DNA of 63,820 nucleotides, filler included, from Stramenopiles sp. TOSAG23-6 (GCA_900128565.1; 13 parts of 13 records of this genome joined end to end with filler, not necessarily neighbours in it); one strand, 5' to 3'; positions 3,101-60,426 are shown, numbered from the whole stretch's first letter. The notes: generated by a model from the letters alone, not told the origin. Program-made: numbers and translations.

Positions 3101-4420
3101 CTAAATGTCTGGGACCTTCCCACTCCTAAATATCTTCAGAAGCCAATCAGGATGACAAAAACGAACTCTCGGTCGTTTATCAGAAAAAGGAATATATTTA
3201 ATACCCAATCCTCTGAGTACATCTTCTTTTGTACTCAAAGTGATGACGTGAGAGGCATCACAAATATCAGTGACAAACTTTGCTCCAATTTTTTTTTGNT
3301 TTTGTCATCAAGTTATGAACATTTTCCACATTAAATAAAAGTATTCTAGCACCTGAGAGACATCCACTTGGATATAAAGGCTGAATTTTCTGACCACATT
3401 CTTGACATTCGAAAGTCCAATGAACCCAGGGACAAGGATGTGGAAGTTTAAAAAGTGTGTTACATTTTGGACATGTATTGTGAAAAAAACATTTAAAAAA
3501 AATATTTTTTTTAATCCGTTAGGTACAAAATGTCGTACGAAAAAACTTTCAAAAAAAAATAATTTTGAAAATGTACATTTTGTAGAAAAATGCAACGATT
3601 TTTCCTTATCTCCACGAATGGGAAGAGCTGAATGAGACAGAGCATTTTTTTTGTTTCCATCTTCATTATCAGAGTCGTTCTTAACTTTTTGTATAGGAGG
3701 AGACGACATTGGACTTAACAAATTTTGAGTCTCAGACATTGGACTTGACAAATTTTGAGTCTCAGACGATTCATCTGAAACTTTTTGTGGTTCGTTCTTA
3801 TTATTTGTTACGACTATAGGCTCAGGTTCATCTTCAGTATCTGATGCATCACCCTGGTCTGTAATGTCCGTCGAATTAATGGTCTTCAAATTGTTTGAAG
3901 ATTGAGAACTTGAAACAGATGGTGATGTACTAGAGTTCGTCCACATGATGGCTGTGGCTTGAACTTTTGCCATAGCAGCCTCTTCTTTGACTAAACACTT
4001 TTTCAATTGTTCCATTGCAAGATTTTGATTCTGCCGTATGTTCTTTATTTGTACACTCATATGAGCCGCCTTTTGGAAAGAATCTGCAGCATGTATAATA
4101 TCCTCAGTTGTCGATAGTGGATGAACACTAGAACTCAATTGCTTCGCGTAGTCTAAACAATCTCGGAAAGCTTGTCCAGTTTTCTTCCAAATGGTACTAG
4201 CTTTTGCTTCGTCCTCTTTTGCACGAGCCACTTTCTCTTGAGCATTTGCCAATTCCTGAAATGCGGCCATGGCATCCAGCGCACTGGGTGCTCGGACAGT
4301 CAACATATCCTTTTCAAGATGATGAGTGACTGTCTTTTGCTTCTTCCGAGCTTGGGTTTTTGGTTGAATGACATCGTCTAAAAGACGCTTCGTTGGACGA
4401 GACATGTGTGCACATGACAT
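3101..4420 (-). CDS. Coiled-coil/low-complexity protein with C-terminal CxxC..CxxC Zn ribbon and BRCT-like domain (2 exons; probable homopolymer frameshift near the N at 3299)
   Basis: After removing intron 3473-3576 the frame reads STK-CPKC...CQEC...LSGARILLF. After a 1-nt shift in the A-run beside an N it continues KIGAKFVTDICDASHVIT...RFCHPDWLLKIFRSG, a BRCT-like pattern. Confidence 0.65.
3473..3576 (-). other. Non-canonical intron GT..AT (104 nt)
   Basis: AT|GTACATTTT...CGTACGACATTTTGTACCTAAC...CACAATAC-AT|GTCC. Removal restores the Zn ribbon. Confidence 0.8.
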
Positions 4421-4764
4421 TTTATAAATCAAACACAGTGGCACAGTGTATATGTCAGTTTTAATGGGGTAAATAGATATAGACTTGGTAATAATATATT
4501 GTAAAGACGAAAACTAAAAAACTAAAAAGGTACATTGACAAATTCTTCACNAAGNTTTCGAGNAAAAAAAACGNTTTGAGNTTTGNCCGAAACACAATCT
4601 CAAAAATAACCCCGAACCCGAACCCTAGCCTAAAATAGTAGTTAACCGTCCGAATATAACGTCTTTTTGTTTTTATGTTTTTTTACATTTAGTATATACT
4701 ATACATAGTTCTGGCCGGCTTACGCTATTCTCTCCATTCCACACAAACGTTCGAGTCATTTACA

Positions 4765-6458
4765 ATGGCTAAGAAAGGGGGTACAACTACAATTAAGCTG
4801 GATTCTAGTATTGATTACTGCGAAAAAACTGAAGAATATCTCATTGAACATAAAGTGGAAAGTAAAATTAATGATATTTTGAATCGAACTCTACGAGAGC
4901 AACCGGACGACCCAATTGGTTTTATTGGGGCGAAGTTTGCTGATCAAGCTTTAAGTTTAAAAGGTATCCTTAATGTTGATGTTCATACTTCTGTTGATGG
5001 ATATGGTAGACCTGCTGTAACTGCACAATTAAAAACCTCACGGGGTACCTTTGTTGCTTCTGTATGCTGCGCTTCTGTAGAGCAGTCTGCAGTATTAATG
5101 CCTCTTCCTGCAACCAAAGAAGAGGGCAGCAATCTTGATGATGGTAACATTCGACCTACTTCAGCATTTGATTCTGGGGATGTTGATGAAGAAGCCAGTT
5201 GGCCAAGTGTATCTGTTCCTCCTTTTCATCCAAACATGGAAAGGATTGCACGAAAAAGAGCACTAACAGAAGCCATCAATTTTTTTAAGAAGAAAGAGGT
5301 ATTGAGTTCTATACTTGGAAAAGATCCTGAAGCTGATCAAAAAAGCATTGATGATGCTATTACAGATCTAAGGAATGAATATGTAGATGATGAAAGAACC
5401 CGAGTCTCGGAATTTAAGCATGACGAAGATAACGTAGTTGAAGCAAAAAAAACAGCACTTGAAGATGGAAAAGTTTCTGATGGTGAAGAAAAGGGAGATG
5501 ACAATGACAACAACAAGTCTGTACCATTATTTGATTTGTCCATTAAAGGAATCTCAAATGCATATGATACTCTACACAAAAAACAATATGCAATGAACGA
5601 GACTTTAGAGGTAGATCTTATGCTTCGCCATGTTTCCCTTGCTATATCTATTGCTTGCGCAAGAGCTGGTGCTGCTGATAAACAATGTCCACTATATAAG
5701 CATATTGCCTCCCTCGCTGATAAAGCAGATGAAATATATTTACCCGTCCCAGTGGTGGGTGTTATAAACGGTGGCATTTTATCCTCGAGTGTGTTACCAT
5801 TCAAAACTGTATATATTATACCAATGGTTCAAGACTCATTTGCAAATGCAATAAAAGACGCTACCTCTGTCGATTCAAAAGTTCGGGCAGTTGCAAAATC
5901 ATTTGGTACTGTAACTGAATCAGATTGTGGTGCTATTGAAGTTGCGTTTACTTTGACAGAAACATCACAAGATGAAGAATCTGACGGAATTGGTGCATTG
6001 GTCTCTGAGAAGTGTATGGATATTGTATTTAAAGCATTAGTTGAGTGTAATGCACCTGAAGAAGGTGTGTCAAAAGAAGTTGAAGAAAAAGACACCACTG
6101 CGGATGATAATACAGAAAATGCAGAGGAGGAAACAGAAAATGTAGAAGTTGAAGTTGATAAGTTGAAACTTGTTGGGGGCATGAGAATGGCGTTGGGCTG
6201 CTCCGCACAAACATTGTTTTCTCCGCCAACTGAACAAGATATCCGAAGTGGACAAAATTTAAGTGGAAGTTATAATATGGCATATAAAATTGAGACTAAA
6301 GAAGACAAAGAAAATGAAACTATTAATGAAGAAACTCTGGGTAAAATATACAGAAAATATATAGAAAAATACCCAATAGTAATGATTGAGGACGCATTTG
6401 AATCTCAGGGATGGGTTGGCTCTTCAGAAATTGTTGAAGAGTTTGGTAGAGATATCAT
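4765..6458 (+). CDS. Enolase-4-like protein with N-terminal RIIa/Dpy-30-like docking helix, 3'-partial
   Basis: EEYLIEHKV..ILNRTLREQPDDP N-terminus; DGYGRPAV, VSLAISIACARAGAADKQCPLYKHIA, LPVPVVGVINGG and KYPIVMIEDAF are enolase-like, with long acidic inserts. Confidence 0.7.
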
Positions 6459-6547
6459 GTATGTTTTATTTTTTTTCAATTTTTTGTCTACATTTTTTTT
6501 CGTACGAAATTTTGTACCTAACAAATTTAAGTTTTTTTTTTGAAATA
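6459..6547 (+). other. Non-canonical intron family member, truncated at contig end
   Basis: AT|GTATGTTTT...TTTCGTACGAAATTTTGTACCTAAC...TGAAATA. Confidence 0.75.
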
Positions 6548-6647
6548 NNNNNNNNNNNNNNNNNNNNNNNNNNNNNNNNNNNNNNNNNNNNTTAATTAAT
6601 TAANNNNNNNNNNNNNNNNNNNNNNNNNNNNNNNNNNNNNNNNNNNN
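6548..6647. other. Artificial contig linker (N-run/TTAATTAATTAA/N-run). The same linker recurs at about 13192, 19832, 26441, 33039, 39626, 46210, 52794, 59365, 60480, 61594 and 62708
   Basis: Identical 100-nt spacer with stop codons in all six frames, repeated 12 times. Confidence 0.97.
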
Positions 6648-7929
6648 TATTATCATATCTAAATTTTAAAGTGATTCATTCACATCATTTACATTGTAGT
6701 CCATGTTGTATGTCAAATCAATATTTGAAACATATATTGGCTCACATCTTAAGTACAGTATGCTTTGAAATTATAGTCAATGTGTTTGCATTTATTTCGT
6801 GTATACAAATATATATGATTGGACCAGATGTAAATCATAATCATCCTAATGTTATGTATGAAATATATACAGATGAAAATTCATCTAATGCATGGTACAT
6901 TATTGGAATTCTTCTTTGTGTATTTTTCACTTTTGAAGTTATATTAAAAATCTATGCATTTGGATTTCATGTATATTTTCATGACAAAACACATATTTTA
7001 GATACATTGTGTGTTTTGGCATCGTTTGCTTCCTATGCAATGACAATTGGTGATGATGAAAGAGTACTAAATAAGTCAATCGCACTTCAATTTGCTGGAT
7101 ATTTTAGAGTTTTATATAGTATGCGAATTCTAAGACTTGCAAGATCCATATCAGCATTACCATTGACACGTCATCATTTCATGACAATATATAGAATTAT
7201 TCCAGCAATGGGTCGAGCATTATGTGTTTATAGTACTGTACTTTACATATGGAGTGTATTTGCTATGCAATTATTACAAGGTAAGCTCACAGGATATCCA
7301 GTGGATAATGACGATATCTGTAATTCTCATTTGTATCAAAATAGTATAAATTCCAAGACTGCAAAATGGTGTGTGAATCGACGTGGACAAAATTTTGATA
7401 ATTTATTTAATTCTTTATTTTCAATGTTTACAGTAAGTATTCTTGGTTCATGGCCAACTCTCATGAATGCTGCTGAAGTGGCTTTACACAGTGAACTTAT
7501 CGCTCGAACATTTTTCATAAGTTTTCAAATATTTGTTGTAATAACTGCAGTACCTGTACTATCCGGGTATATAATAAGTACATATATTGAAATGTGGGAT
7601 ATGTATGTTTTATTTTTTTTTTTAACAAAAAAATCGAAAGTTTTTTTTCGTACGAAATTTTGTACCTAACAAAAATATTTTACTTTAAAAAATATTTTTC
7701 ACAATACATTACTGCAAGAGAAGGAATTCGTTTACGTGAAAGAGATAATGCTTTAAATGATCAAATATCTACAAGAAAATATTGGTGGAATTGGCTATTT
7801 CAAAAACATAAGGAAGTTGTTCATTGTCCTACTAGAAGTCATTGTGAAATGGAAGGTCATGGAAGTGTCAGAGAAATTAATATTCTTAGAATATACGAAG
7901 AAGTTCATGCAAAATATAATGTGTTTTGA
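6648..7929 (+). CDS. Voltage-gated cation channel-type (Ion_trans) domain, C-terminal fragment, 2 exons
   Basis: FTFEVILKIYAFG, S4-like RVLYSMRILRLARSI, pore NFDNLFNSLFSMFTVSILGSW, S6. Intron 7603-7709 joins WD to ITAREG. Confidence 0.8.
7603..7709 (+). other. Non-canonical intron GT..AT (107 nt; mirror copy at 12130-12236)
   Basis: AT|GTATGTTTT...core...CACAATAC-AT|T is in frame. An in-frame AG also lies 9 nt downstream. Confidence 0.7.
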
Positions 7930-8119: not shown

Positions 8120-9284
8120 ATGAATCCACAATGTGATACCGAGACGCCAACAAACGATGAACCGATAAAAGAGGAAACACTAGAAGAAATCAAGTTGAAA
8201 AGAATAAACACGCGTAAGAAGGAATTTCTTAAATATTTACGAGAGGAGGGTGTAAACAAAAAAGCTGCAGTCAAAGCCGGTAAAATTGCTGCTAAAGCTC
8301 ATAAAAAAGCAGTCGTAATATATGCTAGTTGTACTAAAAAGCTATCAGTGGCTCAGAAAAATAAAGAGCGTAGTGAAAATGAAAACGCCGTTGCTCTTTC
8401 AGCCTACAACAATGCTCTCGAAATTGTCACTCAACTTGAAAAGGAAAAACTTGAATTGGAAGATCCAAAAAAAACTGAAAAGCATAACAAAAAACTAGTT
8501 AAAGCTCAAAAGATTCTTTCAAAGAAAAAAGAAGTATCTTCTCTATGTAAAGAAAACCTTGAAGCAGTGACTGAAGTATACAATAAACAAAAAGAAGAAT
8601 ATGATGAAGCATTGAATGAATCTGTAGCTTCTGCTGGTGAATTGAATGCATATCTTGAATTATCTGGAGAAGCTGAAAAAATTGCATTAAAAACGATAAA
8701 GAAGAGAAAGTCTGAGTATGAAAATTTGAAAGTAAAATTATCAAAATCACAAGCTAAATTAAAAAGTATTGAAAATGAAAAAAACAAATCTGTTGCAGCA
8801 CATCAAGAAGCTTTAAAACAATTGAAAATAACAACAGAAAATAATGATGCAAATAATTCAGAGATTGAACGTCTTCAAGGTCTGATTAGTAGAGGTCAAA
8901 CATTTAAATCTCATAAAATTAAAATCGCTGCTGCAAGAAAAGACGTTGCCGTACGTTTTCAGTATGAATTTCAAATTTTTTTTTTCGTACGAAATTTTGT
9001 ACCTAACAAATTTCGAATNNNNNNNNNNNNNNNNNNCGAAATTTTGTACCTAACAAATTTCGAATTTATTTTTTTTTACAATACATGTACATAAAAAAAA
9101 TATTGAAAAAGCAACATTATTTATTCCAAAAGCTAAAGCAGCAATGGATGCAGTTAATTCTAGATACAAAACTCATAAAAATATTGTAGAAATCATGCAA
9201 AAAGATTTAACTCGAAGTCAACAACTTTTTGAAGAAGCAAAAGCGGAACATCAACGCCTCTCATCATTATTACCTGCATTATAA
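8120..9284 (+). CDS. K/E-rich coiled-coil protein, 2 exons
   Basis: Long heptad-rich ORF. Intron 8951-9086 joins KDVA to VHKKNIEK...LLPAL*. Confidence 0.65.
8951..9086 (+). other. Non-canonical intron GT..AT (contains an N gap)
   Basis: CC|GTACGTTTT...core...TACAATAC-AT|GTA. The next several AGs are out of frame. Confidence 0.75.
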
Positions 9285-10627: not shown

Positions 10628-11719
10628 TTATAATGCAGGTAATAATGATGAGAGGCGTTGATGTTCCGCTTTTGCTTCTTCAAAAAGTTGTTGACTTCGA
10701 GTTAAATCTTTTTGCATGATTTCTACAATATTTTTATGAGTTTTGTATCTAGAATTAACTGCATCCATTGCTGCTTTAGCTTTTGGAATAAATAATGTTG
10801 CTTTTTCAATATTTTTTTTATGTACATGTATTGTAAAAAAAAATAAATTCGAAATTTGTTAGGTACAAAATTTCGACTGAAAACGTACGGCAACGTCTTT
10901 TCTTGCAGCAGCGATTTTAATTTTATGAGATTTAAATGTTTGACCTCTACTAATCAGACCTTGAAGACGTTCAATCTCTGAATTATTTGCATCATTATTT
11001 TCTGTTGTTATTTTCAATTGTTTTAAAGCTTCTTGATGTGCTGCAACAGATTTGTTTTTTTCATTTTCAATACTTTTTAATTTAGCTTGTGATTTTGATA
11101 ATTTTACTTTCAAATTTTCATACTCAGACTTTCTCTTCTTTATCGTTTTTAATGCAATTTTTTCAGCTTCTCCAGATAATTCAAGATATGCATTCAATTC
11201 ACCAGCAGAAGCTACAGATTCATTCAATGCTTCATCATATTCTTCTTTTTGTTTATTGTATACTTCAGTCACTGCTTCAAGGTTTTCTTTACATAGAGAA
11301 GATACTTCTTTTTTCTTTGAAAGAATCTTTTGAGCTTTAACTAGTTTTTTGTTATGCTTTTCAGTTTTTTTTGGATCTTCCAATTCAAGTTTTTCCTTTT
11401 CAAGTTGAGTGACAATTTCGAGAGCATTGTTGTAGGCTGAAAGAGCAACGGCGTTTTCATTTTCACTACGCTCTTTATTTTTCTGAGCCACTGATAGCTT
11501 TTTAGTACAACTAGCATATATTACGACTGCTTTTTTATGAGCTTTAGCAGCAATTTTACCGGCTTTGACTGCAGCTTTTTTGTTTACACCCTCCTCTCGT
11601 AAATATTTAAGAAATTCCTTCTTACGCGTGTTTATTCTTTTCAACTTGATTTCTTCTAGTGTTTCCTCTTTTATCGGTTCATCGTTTGTTGGCGTCTCGG
11701 TATCACATTGTGGATTCAT
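10628..11719 (-). CDS. Mirror copy of the coiled-coil protein
   Basis: Reverse complement of 8120-9284, with a collapsed intron. Confidence 0.55.
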
Positions 11720-11909: not shown

Positions 11910-13191
11910 TCAAAACACATTATATTTTGCATGAACTTCTTCGTATATTCTAAGAATATTAATTTCTCTGACACTTCCATGACCTTCCATTTCACAATGA
12001 CTTCTAGTAGGACAATGAACAACTTCCTTATGTTTTTGAAATAGCCAATTCCACCAATATTTTCTTGTAGATATTTGATCATTTAAAGCATTATCTCTTT
12101 CACGTAAACGAATTCCTTCTCTTGCAGTAATGTATTGTGAAAAATATTTTTTAAAGTAAAATATTTTTGTTAGGTACAAAATTTCGTACGAAAAAAAACT
12201 TTCGATTTTTTTGTTAAAAAAAAAAATAAAACATACATATCCCACATTTCAATATATGTACTTATTATATACCCGGATAGTACAGGTACTGCAGTTATTA
12301 CAACAAATATTTGAAAACTTATGAAAAATGTTCGAGCGATAAGTTCACTGTGTAAAGCCACTTCAGCAGCATTCATGAGAGTTGGCCATGAACCAAGAAT
12401 ACTTACTGTAAACATTGAAAATAAAGAATTAAATAAATTATCAAAATTTTGTCCACGTCGATTCACACACCATTTTGCAGTCTTGGAATTTATACTATTT
12501 TGATACAAATGAGAATTACAGATATCGTCATTATCCACTGGATATCCTGTGAGCTTACCTTGTAATAATTGCATAGCAAATACACTCCATATGTAAAGTA
12601 CAGTACTATAAACACATAATGCTCGACCCATTGCTGGAATAATTCTATATATTGTCATGAAATGATGACGTGTCAATGGTAATGCTGATATGGATCTTGC
12701 AAGTCTTAGAATTCGCATACTATATAAAACTCTAAAATATCCAGCAAATTGAAGTGCGATTGACTTATTTAGTACTCTTTCATCATCACCAATTGTCATT
12801 GCATAGGAAGCAAACGATGCCAAAACACACAATGTATCTAAAATATGTGTTTTGTCATGAAAATATACATGAAATCCAAATGCATAGATTTTTAATATAA
12901 CTTCAAAAGTGAAAAATACACAAAGAAGAATTCCAATAATGTACCATGCATTAGATGAATTTTCATCTGTATATATTTCATACATAACATTAGGATGATT
13001 ATGATTTACATCTGGTCCAATCATATATATTTGTATACACGAAATAAATGCAAACACATTGACTATAATTTCAAAGCATACTGTACTTAAGATGTGAGCC
13101 AATATATGTTTCAAATATTGATTTGACATACAACATGGACTACAATGTAAATGATGTGAATGAATCACTTTAAAATTTAGATATGATAATA
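11910..13191 (-). CDS. Mirror copy of the ion channel fragment
   Basis: Reverse complement of 6648-7929. Confidence 0.7.
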
Positions 13192-13721
13192 NNNNNNNNN
13201 NNNNNNNNNNNNNNNNNNNNNNNNNNNNNNNNNNNTTAATTAATTAANNNNNNNNNNNNNNNNNNNNNNNNNNNNNNNNNNNNNNNNNNNNCCGAATTGT
13301 CCGCCGAATTTGCTCCGAAAAAAAAAAAAAAAAAAAAAAAAAATGACGCTTAACGTGAATTGTCGATACGATTATTTGAACGAGAAATTTCAATTTTTTT
13401 TAGCGAAACGAAACCTGCAAATTGCCGAGCTTGTAAAAAAATCGTTAGGTACAAACTTTAGTACGAAAAAATGTAGGTAAAAACAATTTAGGTACTATTA
13501 AGAATATATATTATATATATGGCGCAAGGTACATGTGTCATAATAATCTTGTTGGTTAAATTTTGATTTTTATTTGATTTAAACCAAATGGCAAAACAAT
13601 GTACTGTATGAATATATTACACTCGGTATATACTAAAGGAATAGATATTCATATTCACACACAATTGCTAGAAAGTGTAGTTCTGTGCTCTCTTCCCTAT
13701 CAGTGGCATCTTTTGGGTTAA

Positions 13722-16643: not shown

Positions 16644-17104
16644 TGTTTATTATAAATATCTGGGTATAAATGGCGACTTATGTAAGGATAGACGTGAAGG
16701 ACTTGCTTTTCAATTATATTTCAAGCAAAACAAATCGGAATATGGAAAGCACAAAACGGGCTGAAAGTGCACTGAAAGGTACTTGTAGGCCCCTAGCTAG
16801 TAGCTGGTATAGGAACTCAAATATTATAACGGCTTATAAACGGACAACTTTTTAAAAAACATGTGAACCGGGTACTATCCGAAATTCTTATTAATTTTTT
16901 ATTGTTCATTTTTCTTATATCAAATTCTAATTTCACCAGAAGAAGCGACTCACTAAGATCTAGTCTTGATAAATTGGAAACATCTTCTGGTTCAATCATC
17001 ATCATTCGTTCATAAAATAATAGTTTTTTTTTTCATGAATTTCAAATTTTATTCTTGTACCAAATTTTGTACTAAACAAATTTTACTGTTTACTATTGTC
17101 AACA

Positions 17105-17211: not shown

Positions 17212-18592
17212 TTACAACTCAGATGAAGGGCTACGTTGAAGCGCCGCAAAAGAACTAGCCTGAAGAAATGCTTCTATTTCAGCATCAATTTTCGACCGTT
17301 CTGATTTCGCCAATCCACTGAGAAACTCTGGAGGAATTCGATCAAATCCAGCCATTGCGCCAAGTAATGCACCTAATAGTGCGCCAGTGGCAACATTTTC
17401 ACCACCGCGGTTTGCATTAGCCAATAATACTGTGCGCATGAGCTGAGTGACATCGAAATCATCATCCTGCAAGTTTTGGTTCAAATATTTATATGCCATA
17501 AAAATCATTGCAGGAAATGATTGTGGTAGATATCACGCAGTGACAGGATCCGACGGTGATGTTCTTACTGCTCGTTTCACATCAAAGCCAACTTCATCTG
17601 CCAAATTTTCCAAACATCGAGAAAAAATTTTTTTTTTACTGATTTCATTGTTAGTTACGTTTCTGTGAATGATGCATCGAATTGTTTTACTCAAGGCCAT
17701 GCCATATTCGATAGCTACGGGAGACTTTCTTGTAAAAGAAATAACAGTAGCAATATCTTTCATAGCTTCCTCGTCACTTTTAGCATACAACATCGCAGGG
17801 ACTGCAGCCACAAGAGCATCAGCGGTGTCAACATTATGTCCATCATTATCTGGACAGGCATCAAGAGATTTACCTAATTCTCTATTTGCAAAAAACATAC
17901 GATGTGCTGTACCACAATAAGTATCATTATGAGTCCCTTTTGTAGTTAAGAAAGAGATATAATCGCTCACCAGACTTTCTTTGTCGCAACCAGAGGTAGC
18001 CAATACCGTAACAACTCGGCGATATAGTAAAGCTTCAAGTGTATTATCCCCAGCTTTCATTCCTTTAATGTTTCAAATATCAATCATAATGATAACAATT
18101 TTAATAATACAGTATAAAAGAAAACCAATTAAGGAAATATTGAAAACGGGAATTAACATCAAAGAAAATTAGGAGTTGAAATTCTTCTTGTTGCTAAATT
18201 AATCGACAATAATTAACTTTTGAAAGAAGAAAGTAACTATCTGAATGAGATGATGGATTCTACGAAAGATATTTTTTATGAAACTGACCTTGGTGATAGT
18301 GATAGCTTGTACCTCTTTTCCAATATTTCTTCTTATCATGAAATATGATATTTCCAATAATGTCACCTTTATAACCACCACGACCTCCACCACCAGTATT
18401 AGACTTAGACATGATGGAACCAGCTTTTTTTTCTTTTGGAGCAATAAAGTTAGTAATTTCACCACCATATGTAGCCAAAACTTCCATCCGACCTCCATAG
18501 AACCAATGTGTGGGCATAGCAAGACTATCACCAATAAGCAAACCATACATTGCCCCCTTTACAAAATTCGCGACCGGGGCGAGAGTCGTCAT
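17212..18592 (-). CDS. ADP-ribosylglycohydrolase-family (SelJ/J1-crystallin-like) selenoprotein. Exons 18592-18289 and 18062-17212; in-frame TGA at 17535-17533
   Basis: GAMYGLLIGDSLAMPTHWFY, HNDTY and ANANRGGENVATGALLGALLGA motifs. A GT-AG intron joins YHQ-G-MKAGDNT. DPVTA-TGA-YLPQSFPAMIFMAYKY reads through in frame. Confidence 0.85.
18063..18288 (-). other. Canonical GT-AG intron lacking the stereotyped core
   Basis: CAAG|GTCAGT...TTAAAG|GA ATG restores the frame. Confidence 0.8.
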
Positions 18593-21435: not shown

Positions 21436-21557
21436 TGGAAACTTTATAAAATGGCTTTAACCACAAGTACAAGGTTTCAATTTTTGAAATGAAAAATAAA
21501 ATTTAAATATTTTTTTTGATACGAAATTCCGTACCTAACATTTTTTTTGTCTACTTT

Positions 21558-46143: not shown

Positions 46144-46209
46144 ATGTATTTTGAAAAAATATTTCAAAAAAAAAACTTAAATTTGTTAGGTACAAAATTT
46201 CGTACGAAA
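46144..46209 (-). other. Non-canonical intron, 3' part (..TCAAAATAC-AT)
   Basis: Core plus 3' motif at the contig end. Confidence 0.7.
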
Positions 46210-49200: not shown

Positions 49201-52200
49201 ATCCTTTCTTCTCCCGTGGAGGTGCTTTATTTGTAACAACTTCACCACGAGAGTTGCATTCGTTTCTTATTACATCTTCACGAGTTTGCTGAAGTTCCCA
49301 AAGCTTTCGCTGACGCTTATCTTCAAAATGTTTGTACTTCACAACAGCTAATTGCTTCCGCAAAGCAATATTTTTATTTTTTTTATCACTAAATGTGTGT
49401 ATTGCTCGGCGTTGAAGTTCTTCTTTTGAAAACCCACAACGCTCGGCAGCAAATGAAACTCTAGGTGTACCTAGTCGTATAAGAAAATCCTCTTGTTCCT
49501 CAGTAACTCTAGGACGTTTTGATTTCCCCTTCATACCAGCCACGCCATCTCTGGAAGATCTTACCATACTCTTCTATACTGCTTTAATCACCGATTTGTT
49601 TCAGTTTTGCTGAAAGATACAAGATGTTGATTGGATAATAGTACTACCTTCAAAACGAACGTTTCATAAAAAAAAAAACACGAAATATACGATTTTTATT
49701 TTTTCGAAGATGTATTGCCAATATTTAGATTAGTTCTGTCAAATAGGAGAGTCAAATATAGGTTTCATGTAATCTTTACCATAGCATACAATGAGAAGTT
49801 CATTAACCAGCGAATCTGTTGGAACGAGGACATCAATTCCCCAAAGTTTTCCATTGACTTTGTATTGTAAAAAAATATTAAAAAAAAAGAATCCTTAGGT
49901 ACAAAATTTCGTACGAAAAATATTGAAATTTTAAAATGGACAACATACAAATTATCCGTAAATGCTCTTTCATAGTTCTTCCACGGCCCGACAGTTACTG
50001 TGTCTGGAACAATATCGACATGAAGGTCACCTTTATAATCTTGATCACATTGTGAATAAACCCTATCATTAATAGTGTATGGCTCTGTACATGAAAATTT
50101 GATCAATTGTGCTTGAACACCATTATAGTTCAATTTCTCCATATTTTGAACTCTTTTATCATGTATTGTGAAAAATTATTTTTTTTTTTTTTTCGGTAAA
50201 AAAAAAAAAAAAAAAATCGTTAGGTACACAATTTCGTATGAAAAAATAAATTCGAAATTGAAAAGAAAACCTACATATTGCAAATTATTTTCATTATCAG
50301 AACATTTAGATGCATCGCATGTTAATGTTTGACTATATTTTTTCCAAGAATTTAAAACAGTTTCATCTCGTAAATTCACGCGAAGGTCCACATCATCATC
50401 ATGAATAATAGGTTCTCCTCTCTTGAATTCTAATAGAGTTCCATTAGAAAGTGTTTATTGTGAAAAATATTTTTTTTTTTAAAAATATCGTTAGGTACGA
50501 AATTTCATACCAAAAAAAAAAAGATTGAAAATCATCATGAAAACGTACATTACTGGAATATGATTTTTTTTCATTGTAGATGTTATTGCTTTAAGTATTG
50601 CAACTCTATATTGATATACATAGCTATAATTTTCAGGTGTTATTTTTATCTGAGAGTGTTGATATTTATCAGCGATGGGATTTTCATTGTTCTTTTTATC
50701 TTTGATGTCTTCGATATCTTCATTATTTTTTGATATTGTTATTTCTGTTGTAGTAGCATCGCTAGTTGCTTCAATATTATCACCAGTCTTTATATTTTCA
50801 TTATTTGTATTATGCCCTGCTTTATCCTCTTTGATATTACCATCATTCGTTTCAACAATATCCGCAACGTTACTCGCAATAATCTTATCAACGGTCTCAT
50901 TATTATCCGGTGTATAAAGCTCAGGAAATGTTTTATCGTCACTCTTTAAGCTCTTTAACTTTGCTTTGAACCTTGAATTATCTTTTTTATTCTGAGATTT
51001 TACGGGTTTCATTAAATACGTACTGATACGATTAGCCCATACCTCTGATGTATTGTCAAGTTTGAGATAGTCAGAACCAAACCGTTTCCTTGACGACAAA
51101 GTAGCCAAGTTTTTTGCTGTAGAAAAATTGACAGATAAAACAAGTAAAAAGAATTCAAAGAATTGCATTGTTCTTCCAAGCAAATTCTTGTGATTGTGCG
51201 AAAATTAGACGTGTGTACAATTCACCCAAAGTACCACACAGTTGTAGAATATTCTATGTGGTGGTTTATGTTGTTTGACGTTATTTTTGAATTTTTTTGA
51301 AAAATTTTTGAAATCGAAATCGAAATATTTTTCCGAATAGAATACATCCGAAATCGCCTAAAAATGTTTCACAACAACTATATTTACTATTTTATATACA
51401 TGAATACATTGAACATTATAAATCAACATGAATGCCCGAACATAGGCCTTTACCTTGTAAGTAGTTATGGTGAATCGATCTCATTTGAGTTTCAGAAAGT
51501 CCAGAAAGTGAAGCTGATCCCTCGACACATCCTTGGTTCTCAATATCTATGAAAAAGGGCAAATCTATAGGTGTTATTTTTAATTCTTTTTGTAGCCAAT
51601 AAGCAACACTAACATCTTCCAAGGTTCCAATTGCTTTAAGAGTGCCTCTTTGTGCTTTTCTACTCAAAAACTCTACTAAATCATGTGAAAGAATGTAGTG
51701 AGAACCATGGGCAAAAGGAGGGAAAGCTGCTCCATCAAAGTCAGAAAAGGGAACATAATTTCTATGAGATGGTTCGCGCATTGGCCAGACTTTTCGATGA
51801 AATCGTGTTGCCCAAACTTCCCCAAAAAATGCTTTTGATACGGGTGCTCCATTTTCAGGTCGTAGTTGCTTTACAATATTATCAAGTGTGACGTAGACAT
51901 CAGCATCAATCATCAAAACATACTTAAAATTGAAGTGGGAAGTTATATACGCAAAGAATGACACAGTTTTTTGAACTAATGTAAAATAACTATCAATCAC
52001 ATCAATCGAATCTTCTAATAGTAAGTCTCCATATTTAGCTTGTTCCTCTTCAAGTTCTTTCTTTGCTTTATCCTTGTCAGCAAATTTTGTCCAATCAGGT
52101 CGGCCGATGATGAATAAAATTTTTGTAGTACTGTTCGTATGATCACTACCCGATATCCAAGTTTCTCTTGCTGTCATCCGTCTTGACACGGATTTTGCAG

Positions 52201-52893
52201 CGACTTTTATACCTACAATGACATTTACATTTTTTTTCTTTATTTTTCTGAATTCACCAGATGTTGGTGTGTATTGTTTCAAATAAACTGGTTGTTGTTT
52301 GGGTTGGTTAGTGGCAAATTTATCTTTGTCATGATCATTTGTGTAATAGACATCTTTTGGATGAAAGAGCATGGATTGCCCAACAGCAGGTTGGAGTGAA
52401 AAATTGACATGATTTGTTTTACCAATAGCTTCATACAAAATATTACATGGTGCACTACCTAGCATACCTACACAATTATTCTTCTCTTTTGTAGCTTTTT
52501 GATTTGGTCGTATAACTACTCCGGCAGCGGATGTGTCCATTAGAGTTGCAGTCATGGAGTATTTTCCTGTGACCAAGTTTTTTAATTGAACAACTGATGC
52601 AAAAAGACCTTCACACCAACGCCATTCTTTGCCTTTAGGTTCCAACAAATCCGGACCCTTCATTGTGAAACACATCGCAGTAGATTCTTCATTACGTTCG
52701 TTGAAACTTTTAACATCGTCCACCAGAATGTATTTTGAAAAAATATTTCAAAAAAAAAACTTAAATTTGTTAGGTACAAAATTTCGTACGAAANNNNNNN
52801 NNNNNNNNNNNNNNNNNNNNNNNNNNNNNNNNNNNNNTTAATTAATTAANNNNNNNNNNNNNNNNNNNNNNNNNNNNNNNNNNNNNNNNNNNN

Positions 52894-52949
52894 TTTTGTA
52901 CCTAACAAATTTAAGTTTTTTTTTTTTGAAATATTTTTCCAAAATACAT
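52894..52949 (+). other. Non-canonical intron, 3' part (..CCAAAATAC-AT)
   Basis: Followed by xWSISS...EFFIALCLI (EH domain). Confidence 0.7.
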
Positions 52950-55900
52950 TTGGTCCATTTCATCAAAAAAGGAAGCAAATGTTTTATACATCGATGAGTT
53001 TTTTATTGCTCTTTGTCTTATTTCTTGTGCTCAAAATCAACAAAAAGTTGATATTTCAAGTTTATCTTTATCATTAGAGCTACCACCTGCAAAATTTGAA
53101 GGTATTGATTTACCTTTAGGAATTGATCATTCTTTAAAACAACAAACAAAAATAACACCAACAACAAAAACAACAACAACAACAACACCAACAATATTAC
53201 CACCAGCACCACCACCAGCACCAACAACAACAACAACACCAACACCAACAACAACGCCACCAACAAAAACAACAACAACAACAACAACAACACCAACAAA
53301 ACCAGAAACACTACGCCGTGATACATCAGATATTGATGATGTAATGATGCGAATGATTGATTGTTCACCAACTACATCAAAGAAAACATCAGAAGAGGAG
53401 AGTTTAAGTCTTAGTGCATTGAAAATTCGCAAACGATCAAATACAAAATCTATTGATGAGATTGAATCAACGTATTATAGATTATTATTTAATGCTGTTG
53501 ATAAAACGGGTGCTAATGATGAAAAATTAAAGGGTAAAGAAGTCGTTACATTTATGAAAAAATCTGGTATTGATAAAAATGTGTTGAAAGAAATTTGGAT
53601 TTTAGCTGATCAAAATAGAAATTATTATCTTGAATTTAATGAATTTATTATAGCCATGCGATTAATCGCATTAGTGCAATCTAAAATGTCTCTTGATATA
53701 ACAAAAGTATCAAATATAGATACATTTATTGCATTAAATATCCCTCTTGCTCAATTTGAAGGTCATCCTACACCACCAGTCTTACCTGGAAGTCTAAGTC
53801 GTCTGGGTGGAATATATGTTTTATTTTATTTCAATTTCGAATTTATTTTTTTTTTTGGTAAAAAATTTTTGTACCTAACAAATTTTTTTTTTATAGAAAA
53901 TTTTGAAATATTTTTTCAAAATAAATGATTGTCCAAAAAAATAATGATAAAATGTCAGCATTTGATGATATTGATGATATTGATGATAAAATGTCAGGAT
54001 TTAATAGTATTGATGATAAAAATGATAATGATACTAATGATACTAATGAAAACAATGATACTAATGAAAACAATGATACTAATGATAGTAATAAGGATAA
54101 TGATGGTCCACAAGAACAAGTAGAAGATTTATTTTCTACAAATAATATAGAAATCATTTCGAATGATTTAAACCCTAACCCTCATGAAGATGATTCAATA
54201 CACACTAACCCTAATGATTGTATTGAAAAAAATCCTACAATTCCAATTTCTTTATTTAATTCTGGTGATATTGTATTCCGTCTTAATCAACGTAATGTAT
54301 ACCAACCAGCAATTATTTTAAAAGTTCACAAAGATGATCCAACAATTTCAAGTGTTTATTACACAGTACGTGTTGGTACTTCTGATGGTAAAGGTAGAGA
54401 AATTCAAACTGTTTCCGAGAGATTATTTTTTGCAACTTCAATGACTGACGTTCTTATTCAAAAGTATTTTAAAGAATTATCCCAAGTAAATATCTCAAAT
54501 GTTGACATCACAAATGATTCTTCAGCGACAAATACTACAAATACTACAAATACTACAAATATAAATACAAATAATCATCATAATAATACAAATAATAATA
54601 ATACTATAAATACTACTACAAATACTACTACAAATAACGCAATGGTGGGTGGTAAAAATGCTGTAATTTTTTTTTCTCGTTCCAAAATTTTGAAATCAAT
54701 TTTAAGACAAATTTGGAGTATTGTCGATGATCAAAATATTGGACAATTGTCATTTGCACAGTTTACATTAGTCATGCATTTTATTTCTTTGGCACAAAGT
54801 AGTATAAGTGAAACTATACAATGGCCAAATTTAAATCTTTCTAAAGGTTTAGAAATATTATCAAAATATCCAATGCAACCTTGTTTGATGATTTTAACAG
54901 ATGATGAAAATAAACAAAATCAAAATGTACAAAATCAGTATGTAAATGATATTAATACGACTGCATTATTCAATTCTAAAGAATTACAAGATGATAATAA
55001 TAATAATAATAATAATAATATATTACTTAATTCCAAAGAATTACAAGATGATAATAATAATAATAATAATAATATATTACTTAATTCTAAAGAATTACAA
55101 GATGATAATAATAATAATAATATATTACTTAATTCTAAAGAATTACAAGATGATAAAAATTCAGTATTGACAAATACAAAATCTATTGATGAGATTGAAT
55201 CAACGTATTATAGATTATTATTTAATGCTGTTGATAAAACGGGTGCTAATGATGAAAAATTAAAGGGTAAAGAAGTCGTTACATTTATGAAAAAATCTGG
55301 TATTGATAAAAATGTGTTGAAAGAAATTTGGATTTTAGCTGATCAAAATAGAAATTATTATCTTGAATTTAATGAATTTATTATAGCCATGCGATTAATC
55401 GCATTAGTGCAATCTAAAATGTCTCTTGATATAACAAAAGTATCAAATATAGATACATTTATTGCATTAAATATCCCTCTTGCTCAATTTGAAGGTCATC
55501 CTACACCACCAGTCTTACCTAAAATAGATGTTGAAACGACAGTTACAAATGATGATGAATGGGGTGCATTTACAGATGGTACTTTGGATAATGATTTGAT
55601 GATGAATGATACTACTACTACTACTACTAATAATAATAATAATAAAGAAGAAAAAGAAGAAGAAGAAGAAGAATGGGGTGCATTTAAAGATGGTACTTTG
55701 GATAATGATTTGATGATGAATGATAATAATAAAGAAGAAAAAGAAAAAGAAGAAGAAGAAGAATGGGGTGCATTTACAGATGGTACTTTGGATAATGATT
55801 TGATGATGAATGATACTACTACTACTACTACTAATAATAATAATAATAAAGAAGAAAAAGAAGAAGAAGAAGAAGAATGGGGTGCATTTAAAGATGGTAC

Positions 55901-57335
55901 TTTGGATAATGATTTGATGATGAATGATAATAATAAAGAAGAAAAAGAAAAAGAAGAAGAAGAAGAATGGGGTGCATTTACAGATGGTACTTTGGATAAT
56001 GATTTGATGATGAATGATACTACTACTAATAATAAAGAAGAAGAAGAAGAATGGGGTGCATTTACAGATGGTACTTTGGATAATAAAAGTACAGACTTGA
56101 ATGATACTAATAATAATAAAGAAGAAAAAAAAGAAAAAGAAAAAAAAGAAAAAGAAGAATGGGAAGATTTTAATGAAGGAGAATTTGAATTTCCAGAAGG
56201 AAAAGTTCATGATATTTCCTCTACTGATGATGATGATGATAATAAAGAGACTTCATCATTAGGTACGAATATCGATTTATTTAGTGCATTTGATGAGATT
56301 GGATGTAATGCGTATGAAGATTTTAAGGGTAGTGAAATGAAGCGTCCATCTCTAAGCTTGGAAAATTTAAGTGAAGGATTGAGCACTAACCCTAACCCGA
56401 ACATTGATGCAAATCAATTAGATCCTACAGATTCATTACAATCATCAAAATCATCAAAATCATTAAAACGGAAGCCTTCATTGAATATAAATACATCTTT
56501 TGGAAGCTCATTCCTCTCAGATATGTCACATGTATCATCACAAAGTTGTGTATCAATTCCTAGTATAAAATCACCATCATCTCCGTTTGCTGGTGATGAA
56601 TGGTTGAAAGATCCAAATATATGTATGTTTTATTTTTTTTCAATGTTTAGTTTTAGTTTACATTTGTTGTTTTTTTTTTTATAGGAAAAAAAAAATGTTG
56701 TACCTAACAAATTTTTTTAGAATTTTTTTAAAAATATTTTTCCAAAATATATCAATACCAGATAATAAAAGTATTCATTGGCCTATCAAGGGTAATTTTA
56801 CAACAGTTGTAGCTGCATTGCTTTCAACAGGACGTGTTGCTGATGCTGCAGCATGTCAATTACATATAGTCAAACTTGACGAATTATGTATGTTTTAATT
56901 TTTTTTTGTATGAATTTTTTTTTTTTTGGTGAAAAAATTTTGTACCTAACAAATTTAAGTTTTTTTTTTGAAATATTTTTCCAAAATATATCTGTGTTGG
57001 AGCAAGATATTGAAGATGCACGAAATAATGAAGATTTGTCACTCATTGGTCATCTCAAAAAACGAATTGAAATGTTGAAAAAATCATTAGTTAGTGAAGA
57101 TATTCAATCATCTTGGAGATTGTCTGATGATAATTGGAAAGATGAATATGTTACAAATGATGTACATGATGAAAATACAGATAATGTAAATGATGAAAAT
57201 ACAGATAATATGAATGATGAAAATACAGATAATGTAAATGATGAAAATACAGATGATAACAACGAAAACAACAATAACAACAAAAAAGATACAAACAATA
57301 CAAACAATACAAACAATACAAACAATACAAACAAT

Positions 57336-57377
<42 letters not shown>

Positions 57378-58625
57378 CAACAAATATCCGTAAGACTTCC
57401 AAGTAGTATATTACGTATGCGTCAAATATTACGAATTTTATTCAAAAAACAACATATTATGACAAAACGTCCTTGCTTATTATTTATGCGTAGTCATATA
57501 CCACCGAGTTTACCTGTACCTTTTTTTTTTTTTTTTTTTNATACGAAAATTTAAGTTTTTTTTTTTTGGTTTTCATACGAAAATTTGTACCTAACAAAAA
57601 AAAAATCAAATGTTTGAAATATTTTTCAACAATATTTGTCCATCGATTAGATGTAAATACAGCTGTAGAATCCTATTGTAATGCTGCCTTATCATTTCGA
57701 TTAATAACAAGATTATACACTGCTTCTAAAATGTTGGTTTTTTTTGTTTCATTATTATTTTATTATTTTTCACAATTTTTCTACATTTCAAATAATATAT
57801 ATTTGAAATTATTATTTTATTATTTTTCACAATTTTTCTACATTTCAAATAATATATATTTCAATATATATTTCAAATATATATACTTGAATATATTTGT
57901 ATTTGAATATGTTTTATTATTCATAATATTTCAAATGTTTTTAAAATGTATTCAAAATATTTCAAAAATTTTTCCACACACTAAATTTCATCAAAATTTC
58001 TTAAAAATATATTTTTTCATACTACAGGAAACAATATGGTTCAATTTGGATTCAAATAATTCGTGCTGTAATAACAGAAACAAAGCGTGCGATTTCATTA
58101 TTGAATTCTTTAGATTCTGTTGGAGATTTGAATGTAATGAAACAAGCTAAAACAAATGAAAAATATTTGAAATATTGGCGAGGTTTAGCCATGATGTTTA
58201 CTGTATGTAATTTTATTTTAATTACAATCACAAATTCCTTTTGGGAAGAACCCGTGCTTTTAGAAACATTTCGTGTTTTAGAAGATTTATTACAAACGGG
58301 AACCGGGATTCGTATAAATAATGTAGTGAAAACACAAAAAGAATATTATACCGAAAAAGATTTATATTCATATTTTACTTCACTTGAACTTCAATTTTGT
58401 ACAAAATATTGTCATTTAACATTGTTACCTATTCTGAAATTATCAACAACAACAACAACAACATCACCAATAAAAACAACATTATCAACAACAACAACAA
58501 CATCACCAATACATGATTGTGACCAAGTTCATGACATATTTGCTACAATTATAGTAGATGGTAAAGAATATTTTGCTGGTGCAGCAAATTTATGGGTGAA
58601 TTGTGTTGATACAAATCTCCCTTGA
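52950..58625 (+). CDS. Synergin-gamma-like multi-EH-domain AP-1 accessory protein, 5'-partial, at least 6 exons
   Basis: EH domains (LKEIWILADQNRNYYLEFNEFIIAMRLI), repeated acidic EEWGAF motifs resembling gamma-adaptin-ear ligands, and C-terminal YFAGAANLWVNCV. Introns at 53814-53926, 56623-56752, 56888-56991, 57516-57637 and 57733-58027. Confidence 0.7.
53814..53926 (+). other. Family intron with AT..AT termini (113 nt)
   Basis: AT|ATATGTTTT...TTTTGTACCTAAC...TCAAAATAA-AT|GATT is in frame. Confidence 0.7.
55557..56085 (+). repeat. Coding tandem repeat, 6 x EWGAF(T/K)DGTLDN
   Basis: gaatggggtgcattta(c/a)agatggtactttggataat recurs six times. Confidence 0.9.
56623..56752 (+). other. Non-canonical intron GT..AT (130 nt)
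   Basis: AT|GTATGTTTT...GTACCTAAC...CCAAAATAT-AT|CA is in frame. An in-frame CAG also lies 9 nt downstream. Confidence 0.65.
56888..56991 (+). other. Non-canonical intron GT..AT (104 nt)
   Basis: AT|GTATGTTTT...GTACCTAAC...CCAAAATAT-AT|CT is in frame. Confidence 0.75.
57516..57637 (+). other. Non-canonical intron GT..TT (122 nt)
   Basis: CT|GTACCTTTT...CATACGAAAATTTGTACCTAAC...CAACAATAT-TT|GTC. The next three AGs are out of frame. Confidence 0.75.
57733..58027 (+). other. Canonical GT-AG intron (295 nt) without the core motif
   Basis: AT|GTTGGT...CTACAG|G gives SKM-KQYGSIWIQ, in frame with the last exon. Confidence 0.75.
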
Positions 58626-58784
58626 AAAACGAATAAAATTAAAAAATTAAATTGTGTTTTAATCTCCCTTGAAAAACCTCTAATGATGATATCAAACATT
58701 TAAAATTTTAAATTTTCTTTAATTTCTTCAGTTTCAAGAAATCCTACTAACCCTACAAAATTTTAAATTTTACACACAAAATTT

Positions 58785-59249
58785 TTATACATTCAAAATT
58801 AAATTTTCTTCAATTTCTTCAGTTTCAAGAAATCTCTTCAAGTCTTGCAAGGCTAAAGATTCAATTGTCTCACTATACTCAATTGCTAAATTAATAGATT
58901 GAGATTGTTCAGCACGAACATGATCAACACGAAATTTGCTTATATTTTCATTATTTTCATTATTTTTAGTATCAACACGAAATTTGTTTATATTTTCATT
59001 ATTTTCATTATTTTTAGTAGTAGTAGTAGAGTTATCCAAAAAATCAATATTTCGTGTTTTGACAGGCTCTAATGAGTTAATCCAAGTCACAGCTGCACGT
59101 AAATTACACAAATAATAAATAGCCTCCGAATTTTCACAATAACTACCAAAATTCATTAACCTTGAAATCACTCTATGTGGAAATTTAATCTTTGACTGTA
59201 TAATACAATACACAAAAATTGGAAAAATATCATCTTGTGACAGACTTAC
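58785..59249 (-). CDS. VPS9-domain (Rab5 GEF) protein, last exon; preceded by a family intron ending ..CAAAATAA-AT at 59250
   Basis: LSQDDIFPIFVYCIIQS...SEAIYYLCNLRAAVTWINSL matches the VPS9 pattern. Confidence 0.8.
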   Translation of the reverse strand, partial: VSLSQDDIFPIFVYCIIQSKIKFPHRVISRLMNFGSYCENSEAIYYLCNLRAAVTWINSLEPVKTRNIDFLDNSTTTTKNNENNENINKFRVDTKNNENNENISKFRVDHVRAEQSQSINLAIEYSETIESLALQDLKRFLETEEIEENLILNV

Positions 59250-59533
59250 ATTTATTTTGTGAAAATATTTCAAAACACAAAAATTAAGGTTAGGTATGAA
59301 ATGTCGTATATGAAAATATAAGCAAATTTCGTGTTGATCATGTTCGTGCTGAACAATCTCAATCNNNNNNNNNNNNNNNNNNNNNNNNNNNNNNNNNNNN
59401 NNNNNNNNTTAATTAATTAANNNNNNNNNNNNNNNNNNNNNNNNNNNNNNNNNNNNNNNNNNNNTTGTTAGGTACAAAATTTCGTACGAAAAAAAAATTC
59501 GATTTTTTTGTAAAAAAAAAAATTAAAACATAC

Positions 59534-60426
59534 ACTTCCCTTTCTAACTTTTTCAAAGACTTTTTCAACATTTTTTCCATTCCTTTTTGGACACCTTCCA
59601 TTTCTTCAATTTCTTCTTGGATTTCTTCTAAAATTTCATCATCATCGATTTCAGTATCCTCCAAAGAAGAGGAAATGTTATCTGTAGAATCGGTAATTGT
59701 TCTATCTAATGCAGTCAAACTTGATTTTTCTTTCACTTTTTCTTTTTTTTGTGAAATTGAAGTTAATTTGGATGATTCAGATTCTTCTGAAAGTTTCGCC
59801 ATATTCTCAGCAGCAATAACTTGAGCACCATGTATTTTGGAAAAATATTTCAAAATTTTTTTTACCAAAAAAAAAAAAAATTGTTAGATAAAAAANTTTT
59901 TTACCNAAAAAAAAAAAATATTTAGCTAAATTTTGGTTTAAAAAAAAATAAAACATACATGGGAACCAACCATCAATACTAAAGCATATGAGCCCAACCC
60001 TCCTGTAAATGGCTTATTTAATTTTCTTGTATATAAAAGCTGTTTTAAAATAAGAACTAAAGGCCTTAATGCTGGGTATTGAATCATTAACTGTTTAACT
60101 AATGCAACACTTTGAATGCCCATATGAATATTTTTTGTATTATTTCGTGTATTATTTTCTGTGGAATCAAATGTTATATCAACTTCTATATACCTTATTT
60201 CGCTATTTTTTTCATTATTACCTTTTTCATTTTTATCATTATTATTTTTATTATTATAAATAGCCGTAAATTTGATTACTGGTACATGAGAGGTGATAAT
60301 AACTTGAATGCTTTCTTTCTGAACCCAATTAAGGGTCTCTAAAATATTTGCTAAAATATAAACTCTTTTATGAATTGTATTATTATTATTATTATTATTA
60401 TTATTTTTAATACCACAAATAACAAC
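59534..60426 (-). CDS. TRF4/PAPD5-like nucleotidyltransferase, internal fragment. Family introns at 60427-60479, 59830-59958 and 59465-59533
   Basis: VPVIKF, VDITFD, LRPLVLILKQLLYTRKLNKPFTGGLGSYALVLMV. Confidence 0.85.
59830..59958 (-). other. Non-canonical intron GT..AT (129 nt)
   Basis: CAT|GTATGTTTT...ATCTAAC...CCAAAATAC-AT|GGT joins VGSH to GAQVIA. Confidence 0.75.

Follow-up and report, generated by a model that had tools for sequence, protein, structure and literature searches.

The 63,820-nucleotide stretch of DNA analysed here (the window) has a G+C content of 34%, with G at 16.5% overall, and consists of 13 contigs, longest first, joined by N44-TTAATTAATTAA-N44 linkers (e.g., at 6548-6647 and 13192-13291), so that it does not represent a single locus. 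Among its genes are those for VPS11, ribosomal protein S26e, an enolase-like protein, an ion-transport protein (Ion_trans), a CLASP-type TOG protein (CLASP_N/TOG), an ankyrin/PHD protein (Ank/PHD), a galactosyltransferase, EH-domain and VPS9 proteins, an ADP-ribosylglycohydrolase and a nucleotidyltransferase-like protein. Nearly every interruption of a gene in the window is a copy of one short repeated element, which is the subject of this study. The VPS11 frame (53-2176, +) is 100% identical, across all aligned blocks, to the public gene model P0003, whose source name (eukprot:GSMAST32...assembled CDS) hints that the organism is a marine stramenopile (MAST) of the MAST-3 type. A diplonemid, hence euglenozoan, origin had been suspected from the non-canonical introns of marine diplonemids, but was rejected in view of this identity and of the G+C-rich intron ends of hemistasiids; a protein atlas consulted for VPS11 added nothing on taxonomy.

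Several contigs have an unusual architecture. The contig at 6648-13191 is a palindrome, that at 33139-39625 carries inverted ends of 1096 bp and that at 39726-46209 is identical to the one at 46310-52793, all of which look like amplification or assembly artefacts. Because the palindromic and duplicated contigs inflate raw repeat counts, copies of the element were de-duplicated; all element counts below therefore refer to independent copies only, and the unique sequence is estimated at ~51 kb.

A repeated element in the genes of the window

A profile built from 11 copies recovered 16 complete copies of the element (3473 to 59958), nine that are cut by contig ends or N gaps and four to five degenerate ones. 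The 27-nt core, TTCGTACGAAATTTTGTACCTAACAAA, is matched 15 times with up to three mismatches, compared with 0 matches in 100 shuffles, and an Rfam scan across the window returned 0 matches. Complete copies measure 89-176 nt, mostly about 90-130 nt, and share a common order of parts. They start with GTAYGTTTT, in which G occupies position +1 in 17 of 18 visible donors, while T, A, T and T are found at +2, +3, +6 and +7, respectively, in all 18. There follow a T-rich spacer, the core with its near-invariant branch-like motif GTACCTAAC, a second T-rich spacer and the end GAAATATTTTTC(C/A)A(A/C)AATAYAT. The core, exemplified by 7647-7673 (+), combines a palindrome, TTCGTACGAA, with a 16-nt near-palindrome, GTACGAAATTTTGTAC, which overlaps the branch-like motif and with which the 5′ end of GTAC-type copies is able to pair (fold of 28360-28463). 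The distance from the branch-like motif to the intron end is 32-58 nt in 14/16 copies, the regular expression having taken another motif in the copies at 21663-21838 and 28366-28457. Over 23 acceptors, position -4 is A in 23, -5 is T in 22 and -1 is T in 20, and the last two bases are AT in 17, TT in three and AG, AA and AC in one each. The consensus ends are AT^GTAYGT and ATACAT^ (a caret marks an exon-intron border), ATGTAT being the reverse complement of ATACAT.

Intact or truncated, 25 copies share sequence over most of their length in unrelated genes, the pattern by which introners are recognised, and all 25 lie within genes in sense orientation. The 3′ modules (41-52 nt) of copies in unrelated genes are 92-96% identical, with up to 96% identity among copies in the EH-domain, galactosyltransferase and enolase-like genes; as the median over 231 pairs is 69%, young subfamilies stand against an older background. 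Seven of 24 contig ends fall inside a copy, copies covering 4.5% of the unique bases (p = 7e-5), and two N gaps are likewise located within or next to copies, which is how assemblers behave at high-copy repeats. Copies without intact ends sit in non-coding DNA, and around the one at 26116-26236 there is no open frame on either strand. On sequence comparison, a single repeated and evidently proliferating introner-like family is thus well supported.

Reading frames and splice borders

For each complete copy, the longest open frame ending at the donor was set against the longest starting after the inferred end. Excision of exactly the GT to the last base rejoins the long flanking frames in 16/16 copies (chance, (1/3)^16), intron phases 0, 1 and 2 being represented by six, five and five copies, whereas the first AG past the branch motif keeps the frame in 3/16, which is the chance level. 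Canonical GT-AG splicing through a nearby AG was thereby ruled out: with AG frame-compatible in so few copies, they cannot use it as a class, and a terminal AG in 1/23 acceptors sets the family apart from canonical U2-type GT-AG introns. The copies are probably removed from the message, because nearly every gene here (about 20) would otherwise be broken, and we infer that this takes place at the RNA level through the major spliceosome.

Exons end in AT at 11/16 complete copies and at 12/18 visible donors, AT making up 10% of dinucleotides in the window (p ~1e-8), and do so in every phase (4/6 in phase 0, 4/5 in phase 1 and 3/5 in phase 2). By column, exon position -2 is A in 14/18 and -1 is T in 15/18, and position +1 of the downstream exon is G in 15/23, compared with the 16.5% of G overall. 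In 10/16 copies the exon dinucleotide is identical to the final two bases of the intron, nine with AT on both sides and one with AG on both sides (28366-28457), leaving six mismatch copies that start at 8951, 39958, 41691, 43364, 43964 and 57516. A register beginning at GT is favoured over AT...AC because +1 is G in 17/18 donors, the upstream exon has AT in only 12/18 and one copy is plain GT-AG. A first-pass annotation of this DNA had placed the introns at 3473-59958, described their boundaries as reverse complements, given the counts of 10/16 and of 12/18 regardless of phase together with the six mismatch coordinates, and preferred the GT register. The same limits were recovered here with the 16 complete copies, the relation of ATGTAT to ATACAT is upheld in the consensus, the counts and coordinates were all reproduced, and the contrast between G1 (17/18) and exon AT (12/18) agrees with its choice of register.

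Outside the element family, a 226-nt intron candidate in the ADP-ribosylglycohydrolase gene (18063-18288, -; aag^GTCAGT...TTAAAG^g) joins two pieces that match consecutive parts of a Pfam profile, and the family motifs are absent from it. On account of this candidate, ordinary GT-AG splicing probably coexists with the element family. The same gene has an in-frame TGA at 17533-17535 (-), between pieces matching profile positions 45-187 and 231-287, which could reflect a sequencing error, a pseudogene or a read-through codon.

The individual copies differ in setting and in detail. That at 3473-3576 (-; 104 nt, aaat^GTACAT...ATACAT^gt, phase 1) rejoins frames of 312 and 57 codons. The Ion_trans gene carries a 107-nt copy in phase 2 at 7603-7709 (+), mirrored at 12130-12236 (-) on the palindrome arm of the same contig. 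A complete copy with an N gap at 8951-9086 (+; cc^GTACGT...ATACAT^gtac) is a mismatch copy with a 4-nt GTAC repeat on its right side, and a shorter variant of it lies on the other palindrome arm (10826-10888, -). A 93-nt copy located where the CLASP_N/TOG domain ends (20732-20824, +) shares its last nine bases with the end of the preceding exon, and a 130-nt copy in the EH-domain gene (56623-56752, +) does so over its last eight. The sole GT-AG copy, at 28366-28457 (-; cag^GTACGT...GTATAG^t), interrupts the Ank/PHD gene, and the sole copy starting with A rather than G is at 53814-53926 (+; aat^ATATGT...ATAAAT^g). On the duplicated contig, mismatch copies are found at 39958-40048 (+; gat^GTATGT...ATACTT^g; duplicate 46542-46632), 41603-41691 (-; gag^GTATAT...TAACAT^g; duplicate 48187-48275), 43276-43364 (-; ttt^GTATGT...ATACAA^a, with no junction repeat; duplicate 49860-49948) and 43869-43964 (-; aat^GTACGT...ATAAAC^a, with its AC end; duplicate 50453-50548), together with a copy at 43577-43690 (-; tat^GTAGGT...ATACAT^g; duplicate 50161-50274). 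Further complete copies lie at 56888-56991 (+; 104 nt, tat^GTATGT...ATATAT^c), 57516-57637 (+; cct^GTACCT...ATATTT^gt, a mismatch) and, in the nucleotidyltransferase-like gene, 59830-59958 (-; 129 nt, cat^GTATGT...ATACAT^g). At 21663-21838 (-; 176 nt, tacat^GTACGT...GTACAT^g) two core units follow one another head to tail; about seven final and five initial bases that a normal copy would have are missing where they meet, as though adjoining copies had each been trimmed on the facing side.

Incomplete copies comprise 5′ parts at 6459-6547 (+; enolase-like gene, cut by the contig end, donor at^GTATGT) and at a contig start (59465-59533, -; donor gt^GTATGT), and 3′ parts at three contig starts (1-52, +, ...AATACAT^g followed by the VPS11 exon; 39726-39779, +, ...AATACTT^g, duplicate 46310-46363; and 52894-52949, +, from the profile search), at two contig ends (46144-46209, -, upstream of the galactosyltransferase exon, duplicate 52728-52793; and 60427-60479, -, from the profile search) and beside an N gap (30287-30340, -, ...AATACAT^g). 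The VPS9 domain gene carries a copy at 59250-59334 (-) with the 3′ end AATAAAT^gt and an atypical 5′ end. The neighbouring introns of one gene at 39726-39779 and 39958-40048 (+) both end in the rare CTT and not in CAT, and their 3′ modules are 90% identical; the pair could have arisen by local duplication or gene conversion.

Among the remnants, a degenerate copy with a second core remnant (26116-26236, -) lies in DNA free of open reading frames (ORFs), downstream of and antisense to the + gene at 24179-26059. A degenerate core-only copy at 21494-21547 (+) falls between two convergent genes, a core-only remnant at 13436-13471 (-) is downstream of the gene at 13722-16646 (-), and a weak, decayed copy at 17028-17086 (+; E 0.0012) lies between two minus-strand genes, on the opposite strand. 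Next to degenerate element copies, ORF-free DNA also contains a direct repeat of ~55-65 nt (26300-26440). Two genes deserve separate mention. The EH-domain gene has an exact 350-bp internal repeat (53438-53787 and 55171-55520) and 274-bp repeats that are 99% identical (55551-56159), which may be true coding repeats or assembly artefacts. The gene for ribosomal protein S26e (2601-2936, -), presumably highly expressed, matches positions 1-106 of a 108-position profile in one piece, with no element copy inside the matched span.

Mobility, junction repeats and competing explanations

We consider it probable that the copies are introner-like elements, high in copy number, ~90-130 nt long, non-autonomous and probably mobile as DNA, and that they supply nearly all introns in this stretch. 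Each copy would bring its own splicing signals, namely GTAYGTTTT at its first base, the branch-site-like GTACCTAAC within the partly palindromic core TTCGTACGAAATTTTGTACCTAACAAA, a T-rich tract and the conserved end TTTTTC(C/A)A(A/C)AATAYAT. A sense copy in an exon would be removed from G1 to its last base, restoring the reading frame, and the 3′ cut would be made not at AG but at a constant distance of two bases from the conserved ATAY, where those two bases may vary. Insertion would favour ...A-N-A-T^G sites. A bolder proposal, which we put forward tentatively and regard as possible rather than probable, is that the genes of an uncultured marine stramenopile are filled by one introner family whose 3′ splice site is set by its position past ATAY (able to pair with GTAY) and not by AG, such that a major-type spliceosome, working with standard 5′ and branch signals, routinely finishes at YAT and tolerates TT, AA and AC.

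A number of observations weigh against this interpretation. Any exact insertion restores the frame on exact removal, so that the frame test demonstrates precise insertion and not splicing. There are just 16 junctions, and the draft assembly they come from contains N gaps as well as one palindromic and one duplicated contig. No mechanism is known by which the major spliceosome would recognise a YAT 3′ site. Protein searches found no transcript-derived protein with the EH-domain exon (two distant matches only), the first exon of the three-intron gene (none) or a 174-aa exon (four low-complexity matches among 1.84 billion representatives, none near-identical). Eight sequencing runs were listed, three of them RNA runs with 5-8% of the sequence words, and they speak neither for nor against removal. 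The inverted ends are only 6 nt long (ATGTAT/ATACAT), need the exon AT and are complete in 11/16 copies, while the terminal inverted repeats of miniature inverted-repeat transposable elements (MITEs) are usually at least 10 nt. No transposase family was found among 43 ORF pieces scanned against Pfam in ~51 kb, an absence that says little about the whole genome, and no long element bounded by the family end motifs occurs within the window. RNAalifold gave no consensus pairs for 14/16 complete copies (the copy with the N gap and the two-unit copy being left out), and six single folds had z scores from -0.04 to -2.0, with the end helix in three of the six. When exon contexts were reshuffled among introns, the dinucleotide match at the junctions averaged 7.8, compared with 10 observed (p = 0.07). 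Furthermore, exon ends rich in ATATAT also match the ends of other introns (off-diagonal) over 7-9 nt, which makes the evidence from long repeats weaker than it looks.

Longer matches are in excess in the same permutation test. Trinucleotide matches number six against 2.06 permuted (p = 0.0025) and the summed left repeat is 41 against 24.4 (p = 0.0016); a total slide of at least 3 nt is seen in 10 copies against 7.1 (p = 0.03) and one of at least 4 nt in six against 2.9 (p = 0.02). Junction repeats span 0-10 nt, with 0 or 1 nt in 3/16 copies. In the two copies with 8-9-nt repeats (20732 and 56623) the intron end differs from the family consensus by resembling its own exon instead, and this has the look of real duplication. 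Five copies follow an exon that does not end in AT; one of these matches (AG with AG) and two still end in AT, as would be the case for an element whose own end is simply AT and whose preferred targets are AT^G. Because junction repeats of at least 3 nt are in excess, duplication or target homology of some kind is likely, whereas a duplication with a constant length of 2 nt is not. A GT...ATAC element with a 2-nt duplication and a GT...ATACAT element inserted at AT^G without one predict the same filled and empty sites.

The first-pass annotation had envisaged a MITE-like element inserting at AT, with one copy of a duplicated AT serving as acceptor. Its mobile element survives as an introner-like family, given the 96% identity, the contig breaks and the remnants, whereas the duplicated AT as acceptor is no more than a possibility: the dinucleotide match, one of the two points that it had named as able to refute the idea, shows only a marginal excess over permutation within the window. 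The transposase flanked by the same ends for which it had suggested looking did not appear in ~51 kb, nor did a long element with the end motifs.

An alternative to mobility as DNA is spread through RNA, by reverse splicing into transcripts, reverse transcription and recombination, which would involve no target duplication and would make AT^G a protosplice preference, the counterpart of AG^G. Such a route sits well with a dinucleotide match not above permutation (p = 0.07), with junctions that both read A-Y/N-A-T^G, the MAG^GT...YAG^G pattern with T replacing G, with the sense orientation of all 25 intact or truncated genic copies and with the lack of a transposase among the scanned ORF pieces. 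We nevertheless think it rather unlikely, as degenerate copies are found in ORF-free DNA and antisense to a neighbouring gene (26116-26236 and 17028-17086), junction repeats of at least 3 nt are in excess, and the inverted ends and palindromic core resemble features of DNA elements.

Pairing between the ends bears on a second alternative, in which removal is not the work of the major spliceosome but proceeds by excision guided by end pairing, as in euglenid nonconventional introns, or by elimination at the DNA level, as in ciliates. We hold this to be improbable; nuclear dimorphism is not known in stramenopiles, and it is to a stramenopile and not a euglenozoan that the P0003 source name points. 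With a 2-nt offset (n with -(n+2)), the ends pair as G1:C-3, T2:A-4, A3:T-5 and Y4:R-6, and the exon AT can pair with the terminal AT as well. Over positions +1 to +4 there are 54/64 pairs (14, 16, 15 and 9 of 16), compared with 6-41 in the eight other registers tested, and this is the register implied by the Euglena code 5′-N3-CDG...CHG-N5^R, as given in the relevant part of PMC12501133. A purine at +1 of the downstream exon in 17/23 cases and the variable last two bases point in the same direction. Yet the helix has just 4-6 A-U-rich pairs and is not predicted, and the family has a standard GTAYGT 5′ end and a near-invariant branch-like motif, which nonconventional introns lack according to an excerpt of PMC6221363. 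End pairing is thus a lead and not a finding. Covariation of C4 with G-6 in the end helix was considered and rejected, G-6 occurring in two copies, both with C4, which is not significant (chance ~0.18 by hand calculation).

It is very doubtful that the copies are ordinary old introns with unusually long and strict splicing signals, alike through convergence under selection and not through transposition. The most invariant columns are indeed presumed signals (5′ GTA, TACCTAA and the 3′ T-tract/ATA), and 3′ modules have a median identity of no more than 69%. Stretches of ~50 nt outside known signals are, however, 92-96% identical in unrelated genes; contigs break inside copies, non-coding remnants and a two-unit copy exist, the phases are uniform, and a different GT-AG intron candidate without the family motifs is present in the same window. 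An AT...AC register, with the intron starting two bases earlier at the exon AT and ending at ATAC, is scarcely tenable, for although either register yields the same mRNA in 10/16 copies and an initial A is known to be compatible with a final C in AT-AC introns, the first two bases would be AT in 11/16 and the last two AC in 9/16, G1 is present in 17/18 donors, the copy with AG on both sides would turn into AG...AT, the 5′ motif is not of the ATATCC type and a branch motif 32-58 nt from the end (14/16) is too far away for a minor-type intron.

Relation to described introns and implications

For bursts of intron gain, introners have the best support as a source, and most of the families described keep to GT-AG. 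Introner elements of Micromonas pusilla and Aureococcus anophagefferens were reportedly described by Huff, Zilberman and Roy in 2016, and the MITE-derived non-canonical introns of Fritillaria borealis are said to have been described by Henriet et al. in 2019. Minor, U12-type introns have the 5′ consensus RTATCCTT and the branch consensus TCCTTAAC within ~10-26 nt of the 3′ end; the present family departs from both, with its 5′ GTAYGTTTT and a branch-like motif 32-58 nt from the end in 14/16 copies.

The introners of Micromonas and of Aureococcus, the latter also a stramenopile, are likewise short, near-identical introns in unrelated genes of marine picoeukaryotes, with short inverted ends, direct repeats at the junctions and one or both splice sites brought by the element, as set out in part of PMC11282704. 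Their splicing motifs are canonical and their direct and inverted repeats of constant length, in the corresponding extract of PMC7789003, whereas here AG ends 1/23 acceptors and the junction repeat varies over 0-10 nt. The same extract depicts Amoebophrya introners as repeated introns with non-canonical ends, inverted repeats that join both ends, direct repeats (3-5 nt there) over the boundaries and no transposase inside, all of which we also see, but with 8-20-nt inverted repeats and no preferred terminal dinucleotides, unlike the uniform GT...AT ends, standard-looking 5′ site and branch motif and 6-nt inverted repeat found here. The transposon-like U12-type introns of Physarum polycephalum (bioRxiv 10.1101/2020.10.12.336362, in excerpt) share inverted ends, flanks that repeat a dinucleotide directly (TA in that case), strict motifs at the 5′ end and branch, and relaxed 3′ dinucleotides that include GT-AT; they are, however, introns of the minor spliceosome with RTATCTT, in place of GTAYGT and a branch motif 32-58 nt from the end (14/16).

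Euglenid nonconventional and hemistasiid diplonemid non-canonical introns likewise have junctions that can slide over short direct repeats, ends that pair at an offset of 2 nt, a downstream purine and a proposed MITE origin, in the portions of PMC12501133, PMC6221363 and PMC12621601 that deal with them. Those portions describe introns without a U1-type 5′ site or a conserved branch motif, the hemistasiid ends being G+C-rich, whereas the present family has A+T-rich ends, a canonical 5′ site and, apparently, a stramenopile host. Measured against the definition of euglenozoan nonconventional introns, the family, with its conserved borders, GTAYGT 5′ site and lack of consensus structure, agrees only in the pairing register. 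In Fritillaria borealis, an animal, the U2 spliceosome is thought to process many MITE-derived non-GT/AG introns of diverse terminal dinucleotides, according to parts of PMC11282704 and PMC13326754, unlike the one family and one dominant end pair seen here.

Further copies were sought in public DNA. The core 24-mer had 0 matches in metagenome contigs, a 17-mer had 64 loci, all without the flanking element, and a 22-mer had 0 in viral contigs and 0 in genome contigs. Of 57 papers with at least two of four relevant terms, none of the 10 listed joins introner with a MAST term, and such introns in MAST-3 were not found described in the literature searched. The main texts of two introner surveys (PMC9860276 and PMC12130899), taken without their supplementary species tables, contain neither MAST nor stramenopil, and the relevant excerpt of PMC12130899 states that introner families whose ends were unfamiliar were kept only where RNA data backed them. 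Four genomic papers dealing with MAST lineages, in the passages searched, either leave introns unmentioned or refer to them only for methods or genome fractions.

The striking point, as far as reading-frame logic carries it, would be that an intron of otherwise standard appearance has a uniformly non-AG 3′ end. If this is true, a family with standard 5′ and branch signals and a non-AG end would bear on how the splice site of the second step is chosen. It would also mean that canonical-site gene models of such uncultured protists are systematically wrong. Compared with the open VPS11 frame at 53-2176 (+), P0003, the one model compared, has six in-frame gaps of 13-25 residues each, which suggests introns invented by canonical-site gene prediction within an uninterrupted exon. 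Since the last two bases can vary freely, co-option of a target duplication would become open to testing, and with a 3′ site set by position the element could insert at any dinucleotide without forfeiting its exact removal. A heterotrophic stramenopile lineage would then join the hosts of introners.

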